From Escherichia coli (lineage in GTDB: Bacteria; Pseudomonadota; Gammaproteobacteria; Enterobacterales; Enterobacteriaceae): DNA of 64,000 bases. The notes beneath the pieces were generated by a model, which saw only the letters and a program-made list of their open reading frames with translations, was not told where the DNA came from and did not search any database. Positions 29,690-29,945 of the stretch are shown here, piece after piece. Position 1 is the first letter of the stretch; each line of letters starts with the position of its first letter. The stretch lies in NCBI RefSeq assembly GCF_003334385.1, contig NZ_QOWN01000026.1; one strand, given 5' to 3'. A program made the translations under genes and the position numbers.

Positions 29690-29800
29690 GGCAAATATAG
29701 ATTGGGCCAGAGCACGAAAGTTAATACCACGTTCGCACAGCTCCTCCAACAGCACGACAAGATGCCACATACTGCGCCCCAGTCGGTTCAGTTTACAGAC
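29690..29800 (-). pseudogene. pinH: Serine-recombinase (Pin/Hin-type invertase) fragment
   Basis: Minus-strand translation HLVVLLEELCERGINFRALAQSI resembles the invertase motif HL..LV.ELRERGINFRSLTDSI; no intact ORF. Confidence 0.55.
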
Positions 29801-29859
29801 TAGCAGTGCGTTCCCTGCCGATGATGTCCTGACCAGTTTTTTCAGTCCGGACCTCCTGC

Positions 29860-29945
29860 CACGGTTTTACGTTGAAGTGGTAACCCTGAGCACGCAGTTC
29901 TTCAGTCAGGCGTGGTGCACCGTAACGCTGTTATTGCTGGGTAAG
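29860..29945 (-). mobile_element. IS3-family transposase (OrfB N-terminal) fragment
   Basis: Minus-strand translation [22 protein letters not shown] resembles the start of IS3-family OrfB; truncated. Confidence 0.4.

Follow-up and report, generated by a model that had tools for sequence, protein, structure and literature searches.

Two short recombinase-like peptides are encoded close together on the minus strand of the window, the 64,000-nucleotide stretch of Escherichia coli DNA analysed here. The question raised by this locus is what the peptides are remnants of, how they came to lie side by side, and whether the DNA that encodes them still has a function. The original prediction described incomplete fragments of a serine invertase and of an IS3-family transposase at 29690-29945. 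This location was found to be right, while the extent is slightly larger: the composite as a whole occupies 29674-29949 (minus strand) and is 276 nt long, consisting of 92 nt of IS3 and 184 nt of an invertase gene. It is very probably a non-functional relic, made up of the E. coli pseudogene pinH and an unannotated remnant of IS3.

Structure of the composite segment

The invertase piece, situated at 29674-29857 (minus strand), is the core of pinH. It derives from the interior of a PinE/Gin-type serine DNA invertase gene and corresponds to approximately nucleotides 121-306 of the 555-nt gene, or to codons ~41-101 of ~185. The predicted invertase-type motif, LVVLLEELCERGINFRAL, is present on the minus strand at ~29760-29707, in a frame where the six-frame translation shows it to be part of a longer invertase-like stretch of 54 residues. 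A 79-residue translation of the region aligns with residues 39-95 of the phage Mu invertase Gin (PDB 3UJ3 and 4M6F) with an E value of 4.7e-12, and matches positions 48-103 of the 145-position Pfam Resolvase model (PF00239), which represents the catalytic, resolvase N-terminal domain, with an E value of 3.3e-9. At the DNA level, 127 of 152 nt (84%) are identical to a plasmid pinE gene (E 5e-40), and the alignment with the Fels-2 invertase gene extends to nt 303. The invertase-derived DNA can thus be delimited, from the PDB, Pfam and pinE/Fels-2 DNA alignments, to window positions 29857-29674. Intact DNA invertases found by tblastn among phages and plasmids (Fels-2, SEN8, plasmid pinE/hin) are 65-74% identical over the same residues. 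The NCBIfam matches obtained with the peptides alone are sub-threshold (E 0.003-0.006, far under the curated cut-offs), so that the case is carried by the PDB, Pfam and DNA comparisons.

The likeness to PinE of the e14 element in K-12 covers codons 41-94, with 128 of 162 nt (79-80%) and 39 of 54 amino acids identical, and a plasmid-borne pinE gene has 84-86% DNA identity to the fragment. Compared with PinE and with the Gin, Cin and Hin invertases, about one third of the gene remains in the relic. The catalytic domain is not complete, as the homology starts at about codon 41 and there is no upstream frame encoding an invertase N terminus. The nucleophilic serine of Gin and Hin is N-terminal, at residue 9-10. 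The DNA immediately 5' of the invertase fragment is derived from IS3. At the other end the homology stops at about codon 101, and the C-terminal helix-turn-helix DNA-binding domain is absent. Hin, Gin and Cin have a Fis-dependent recombinational enhancer within the 5' part of the gene; the first ~120 nt being deleted here, at most a partial Fis enhancer could remain. The intact relatives adjoin tail-fibre genes, whereas the relic has no adjacent invertible tail-fibre segment: there are no tail-fibre genes nearby, and no invertible segment with paired inverted crossover sites was found. The only inverted repeat pair in 29300-30300 is a 15-nt palindrome. A pix-type crossover repeat, searched for with the pattern quoted in PMC12529663, has a single match in the whole window, with three mismatches and inside ypjA, which is at the level expected by chance.

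The IS3 piece consists of two parts. The larger one, at 29858-29931 (minus strand), is an internal fragment of IS3 orfB (insF) corresponding to IS3 nt 544-618 and to InsF residues ~62-86, in which one base has been lost, reducing the 75 nt of IS3 to 74 nt. The IS3 OrfB-like peptide of the original prediction was found here on the minus strand; its 21 residues are encoded at ~29925-29863 in a frame of their own and match within InsF residues 62-86. In a blastn comparison, 78 of 88 nt are identical to IS3A of MG1655 (E 3e-28), the alignment ending at window position 29858. The best non-self matches on plasmids are to IS3/IS3H at 90.9% identity, on Shigella and E. coli plasmids, which points to IS3 or a close isoform as the donor. 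The NCBIfam profile transpos_IS3 gives a weak match over positions 146-173 of 369.

The smaller part, at 29932-29949 (minus strand) with the sequence TGATCTTACCCAGCAATA, is probably the tip of the left terminal inverted repeat (IRL) of IS3, nt 1-18. All 18 nucleotides are identical to those of IS3B of MG1655, which is 1258 bp long, and the IS3 homology ends exactly at the outer edge of the tip. Against the 3-bp-shorter IS3A copy, 15 of 15 nucleotides are identical. In the MG1655 annotation IS3A is 1255 bp long, as it lacks the three bases, TGA, with which the left inverted repeat of IS3B starts. Nucleotides 527-543 of IS3 are themselves similar to the IRL tip at 11 of 17 positions, so that the assignment depends on about seven additional matching positions and is hence given as probable. 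This resemblance may represent a microhomology where the deletion occurred. The possibility that the 18 nucleotides are a diverged internal part of IS3 was also considered and is less likely, because they are 100% identical to the IRL and agree with the internal stretch at only 11 of 17 positions, the rest of the fragment being ~90% identical to IS3.

Elements of the IS3 family have two terminal inverted repeats of ~39 bp with the form 5'-TG...CA-3'. Of these, the search for terminal repeats that the original prediction had called for recovered what is probably the left tip (29949-29932), while no second repeat matching the right end of IS3 is present in 29400-30250. As the right end has been deleted, the locus has no second copy of the target that could form the 3-bp duplication typical of IS3 insertions. 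In comparison with IS3 itself (IS3 family, IS3 group; 1258 bp; orfA and orfB being insE and insF), the relic is a perfect match to the first 18 nt of the element and has 89-91% identity to nt 544-618. What is left covers 93 of the 1258 positions with 92 nt; the right inverted repeat, orfA, the frameshift site and the part encoding the transposase catalytic domain have been lost. The surviving part of InsF is N-terminal and lies upstream of the DDE transposase catalytic core. Neither piece of the composite is a complete gene, in agreement with the original prediction, and the IS3 piece would be unable to transpose.

The IS3 piece lies directly against the invertase piece, with zero gap, the junction being at 29858/29857. 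The spacing of ~100 bp reported in the original prediction holds between the two motifs that it quoted; the fragments themselves abut. Three junctions define the composite. The first joins IS3 nt 18 to nt 544, the second joins IS3 nt 618 to invertase nt ~121, and the third joins invertase nt ~306 to a module that comprises the 5' end of ypjA and its upstream region (29318-29673, minus strand). This module is a paralogue of the sequence upstream of the ycgV autotransporter gene, the ymgJ region: in strain CFSAN002236 the ymgJ/ycgV upstream region is identical to it at 318 of 356 nt (89%; E 7e-135), the alignment ending at 29673. The edge of the paralogy at 29673 coincides with the end of the invertase homology, giving a sharp boundary at 29673/29674. 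The paralogous part includes the 5' end of ypjA and a 256-nt upstream region, and its sharp outer edge suggests that the autotransporter gene was duplicated or moved together with the sequence upstream of it, as a single block. On the other side of the composite, the 3' flank of ypjB up to the end of IS3 (29950-30199, minus strand) has no homology to IS3 or to the invertase and no Rfam match. It contains a G+C-rich hairpin at 30052-30079, which was scored as terminator-like on the plus strand.

Comparison with K-12 MG1655 identifies the locus. The window and MG1655 differ at 13 positions across 24525-33000 and at none in 29217-30792. The MG1655 gene pinH (b2648), located between ypjA and ypjB at 2783065-2783304, corresponds to window positions 29627-29866 and has the same locus and sequence as the relic, although its boundaries follow an accidental open frame and not the homology. 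At its 3' end, pinH extends 47 nt beyond the invertase DNA into the ypjA upstream module (29627-29673), and at its 5' end it includes 9 nt of IS3-derived DNA (29858-29866). The PGAP annotation has an incomplete 'recombinase family protein' at 29696-29863, with N and C termini missing. The IS3 remnant is marked by neither the MG1655 annotation nor PGAP, and 29867-29949 is wholly unannotated. pinH is thus an already known feature, and the relic is an ordinary, known K-12 pseudogene with an IS3 scar attached to it that the annotation leaves unmarked. Nothing specific about pinH was found in the literature beyond gene lists, the sole mention being in a list of deleted genes, and it is absent from the text of recent work on PinQ, PinR and PinE. 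The identity with pinH (b2648), the direct abutment of the two pieces and the probable survival of the IRL tip were not part of the original prediction. Judged from its sequence, the relic would be unable to recombine DNA, as it is without the catalytic serine region, the DNA-binding domain, the crossover sites and the transposase catalytic domain and has one partial IS end only; it appears now to drift neutrally.

Variation among E. coli genomes

At least 80% of a 751-nt query from the locus is carried, at 90-100% identity, by 3003 of 5426 complete E. coli genomes. The segment is absent from the other 2423, most of which matched the query only at the ymgJ/ycgV paralogue. Eight alleles were aligned, namely the K-12-type, O157:H7, NCTC11121 and SMS-3-5 alleles and four others that include the most diverged one found. 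The IRL tip and the same three junctions are present in all eight, the alleles differing by up to ~10% in DNA. In an alignment of seven alleles, the IRL tip has no more than one change. A protein search with the 65-residue fragment returned 19 relatives, all of them E. coli fragments of at most 97 residues, several of which read through the IS3-invertase junction. An intact close relative was sought by the same search, which gave only these 19 short fragments of the same relic. The KE47 allele, the most diverged (73.8% amino acid identity), was considered as a possible less-decayed copy and was found to be colinear, with identical junctions.

The invertase frame has private lesions in several alleles: a 1-nt deletion in 2020N21 and stop codons in PCP07014 and in CB7453/KE47. 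Some alleles retain the canonical GDTLVV, while the window allele has GNALLV, showing that decay has proceeded independently since the junctions were formed. The ratios of nonsynonymous to synonymous changes among alleles are 0.55-1.64, that is about 1, as calculated from few substitutions in 54 codons, and several pairs of alleles differ by nonsynonymous changes only. There is no coding constraint on the fragment.

The divergence of the alleles is uneven. It reaches ~10-15% in 29780-29870, which is the 5' half of the invertase fragment, as well as in 30000-30060, and is almost zero in the adjoining 5' region of ypjA (29372-29470). Within the relic, 29674-29775 is almost invariant in five of the seven alleles and 29780-29870 is variable. 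This pattern looks like a mosaic of recombination tracts. It is also what would be expected if the relic had been co-opted as a control region of ypjA, in which case the half proximal to ypjA should be less variable than the distal half. According to this explanation, the relic would affect ypjA by providing a promoter, a small open reading frame or a region to which nucleoid proteins bind. On the minus strand it immediately precedes the ypjA upstream module, and there are open reading frames on both strands, the candidates being a 47-residue frame starting with MWHLVV (29627-29770, minus strand) and a 122-residue antisense frame (29601-29969); gene prediction has yielded short entries at this place, labelled 'recombinase family' or hypothetical. 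However, in other alleles these frames are interrupted or have a different length, the 47- and 122-residue products have no family matches, and the ratio of nonsynonymous to synonymous changes is close to 1. A promoter and terminator scan gave counts at chance level with no surplus of promoter-like sites, and both promoter-like sites found are on the plus strand and face away from ypjA. Rfam, searched with 29200-30400 at E values up to 1, returned nothing. The segment is, moreover, dispensed with in the 2423 genomes mentioned above. A role of this kind is therefore highly improbable, and its more specific form, in which just over half of the complete E. coli genomes have kept the relic as co-opted upstream control DNA of ypjA (EhaD), for example as a platform for nucleoid proteins, is a shade more improbable still. 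The reading of the locus as a non-functional relic is followed below.

A scan for the exact pattern in one genome per species found two non-Escherichia contigs only. These are NZ_JAHZMP010000086.1 (Terrisporobacter mayombei) and DEQI01000374.1 (a Planococcaceae metagenome-assembled genome), which are 98.9% and 99.9% identical to the locus; the label of one of the two gives a coverage of 0.74x. The simplest explanation is E. coli contamination in these assemblies, so that the scan is uninformative on other Escherichia species.

Position between ssrA and ileY

The relic is situated in a 7.8-kb interval bounded by the 3' ends of ssrA and ileY. The tmRNA gene ssrA (24185-24547, plus strand) was located with ARAGORN and by an Rfam match of 295.8 bits. 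The tRNA gene ileY, with anticodon CAU (32324-32399, minus strand), was located by ARAGORN, Rfam and the MG1655 annotation, with its 3' end directed towards ypjC, ypjB and the relic. Both ssrA and ileY are classic integration sites. The relic is an old, fixed scar between these two tRNA-type integration hotspots.

The neighbours of the relic are themselves partly broken. The ypjA gene (24708-29417, minus strand), identified from the list of open reading frames and by frame analysis, encodes an EhaD-type autotransporter and has a nonsense codon at 28593-28595, a CAG codon of K-12 being changed to TAG by a single base change at 28595. The nonsense codon splits ypjA into open reading frames at 28593-29417 and 24708-28484, and is either a strain-specific pseudogene mutation or a sequencing error. 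On the other side, ypjB (30200-30991) and ypjC (31091-31573) are the halves of a broken gene of the YpjCB family (30200-31573, minus strand). The NCBIfam model NF050179 (Ecoli_YpjCB) is matched by ypjC over profile positions 1-160 and by ypjB over 218-465. PGAP describes the gene as 'ypjCB, internal stop' in K-12-type genomes, and it is intact in O157:H7 and others. The surroundings form an island of low G+C content, which falls to 31-36% across 30000-34000 and is 33-36% in ypjB/ypjC. Elsewhere in the window, Rfam matches at the gathering threshold were obtained for the RyfD sRNA (2746-2884), the Phe leader (6190-6315), naRNA4 (CssrE; 54696-54773) and MicA (61371-61442), all of which are expected in this part of the E. 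coli chromosome.

The cryptic prophage CP4-57 is cleanly absent from the window, where the 3' end of ssrA (24525-24547) is followed by what in MG1655 is the right-hand flank of CP4-57. The alignment of the window from 24525 onward starts in MG1655 at 2777964, at the right edge of the prophage. As ssrA is joined directly to this sequence, ypjA, pinH, ypjB, ypjC and ileY are outside the excisable prophage. These observations bear on the possibility that decay of CP4-57 gave rise to the invertase fragment. In K-12 the fragment is only ~5 kb past the right end of the prophage, one database names it 'putative DNA-invertase from prophage CP4-44', and pinH has been grouped with CP4-57 genes. Nevertheless, the relic is present here, identical to that of K-12, where the prophage is missing, showing that it is not part of CP4-57. 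Furthermore, the CP4-57 feature of MG1655 ends at 2777971, before ypjA, and many closely matching genomes show ssrA, ypjA and the recombinase fragment together. An origin from CP4-57 is scarcely credible; the relic is older island material and not a part of the excisable CP4-57 unit. Chance similarity, or an over-reading of short motifs in DNA that has no recombinase ancestry, might be suspected from the shortness of the fragments (25 and 61 codons) and from the weakness of the NCBIfam matches taken alone, and can be dismissed, since the database comparisons confirmed both predicted homologies (E 3e-28 for IS3 DNA, 5e-40 for pinE DNA, 4.7e-12 for the Gin protein and 3.3e-9 for Pfam) and two independent annotation pipelines mark the invertase piece.

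Proposed history of the locus

The anatomy of the relic requires that IS3 inserted at least once and that three junctions arose by deletion or rearrangement, which bears out the successive insertion and deletion events proposed in the original prediction. The order and mechanism of these events and the nature of the donor element are what we infer from the arrangement that is left. A mobile element with a PinE-type DNA invertase gene would formerly have resided between ssrA and ileY, its invertase gene being of the kind that is found beside invertible tail-fibre segments in e14, in P2/Fels-2-like and in Mu-like phages. A copy of IS3 would have inserted downstream of ypjB. Deletions or rearrangements would then have removed IS3 nt 19-543, the sequence from IS3 nt 619 to approximately nt 120 of the invertase gene, and the sequence from approximately nt 307 of the invertase gene to the edge of the ypjA upstream module. 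The remainder would be the present fusion, with 92 nt from IS3 and 184 nt from the invertase gene. Trimming to 276 nt probably predates the diversification of the sampled carrier lineages.

The relic is thus a small fossil of the ssrA-ileY interval, which mobile elements have occupied and eroded again and again. The past occupants would include a carrier of a phage-type invertase, IS3 and, in some strains, CP4-57. The biological weight of the relic is very small and its practical use is in annotation: gene callers repeatedly produce spurious short 'recombinase family protein' entries from it. In strain HZ13 (NZ_CP128609.1), which is otherwise identical, an IS1B element is inserted inside the 751-nt interval, showing that insertion sequences still land at this locus.
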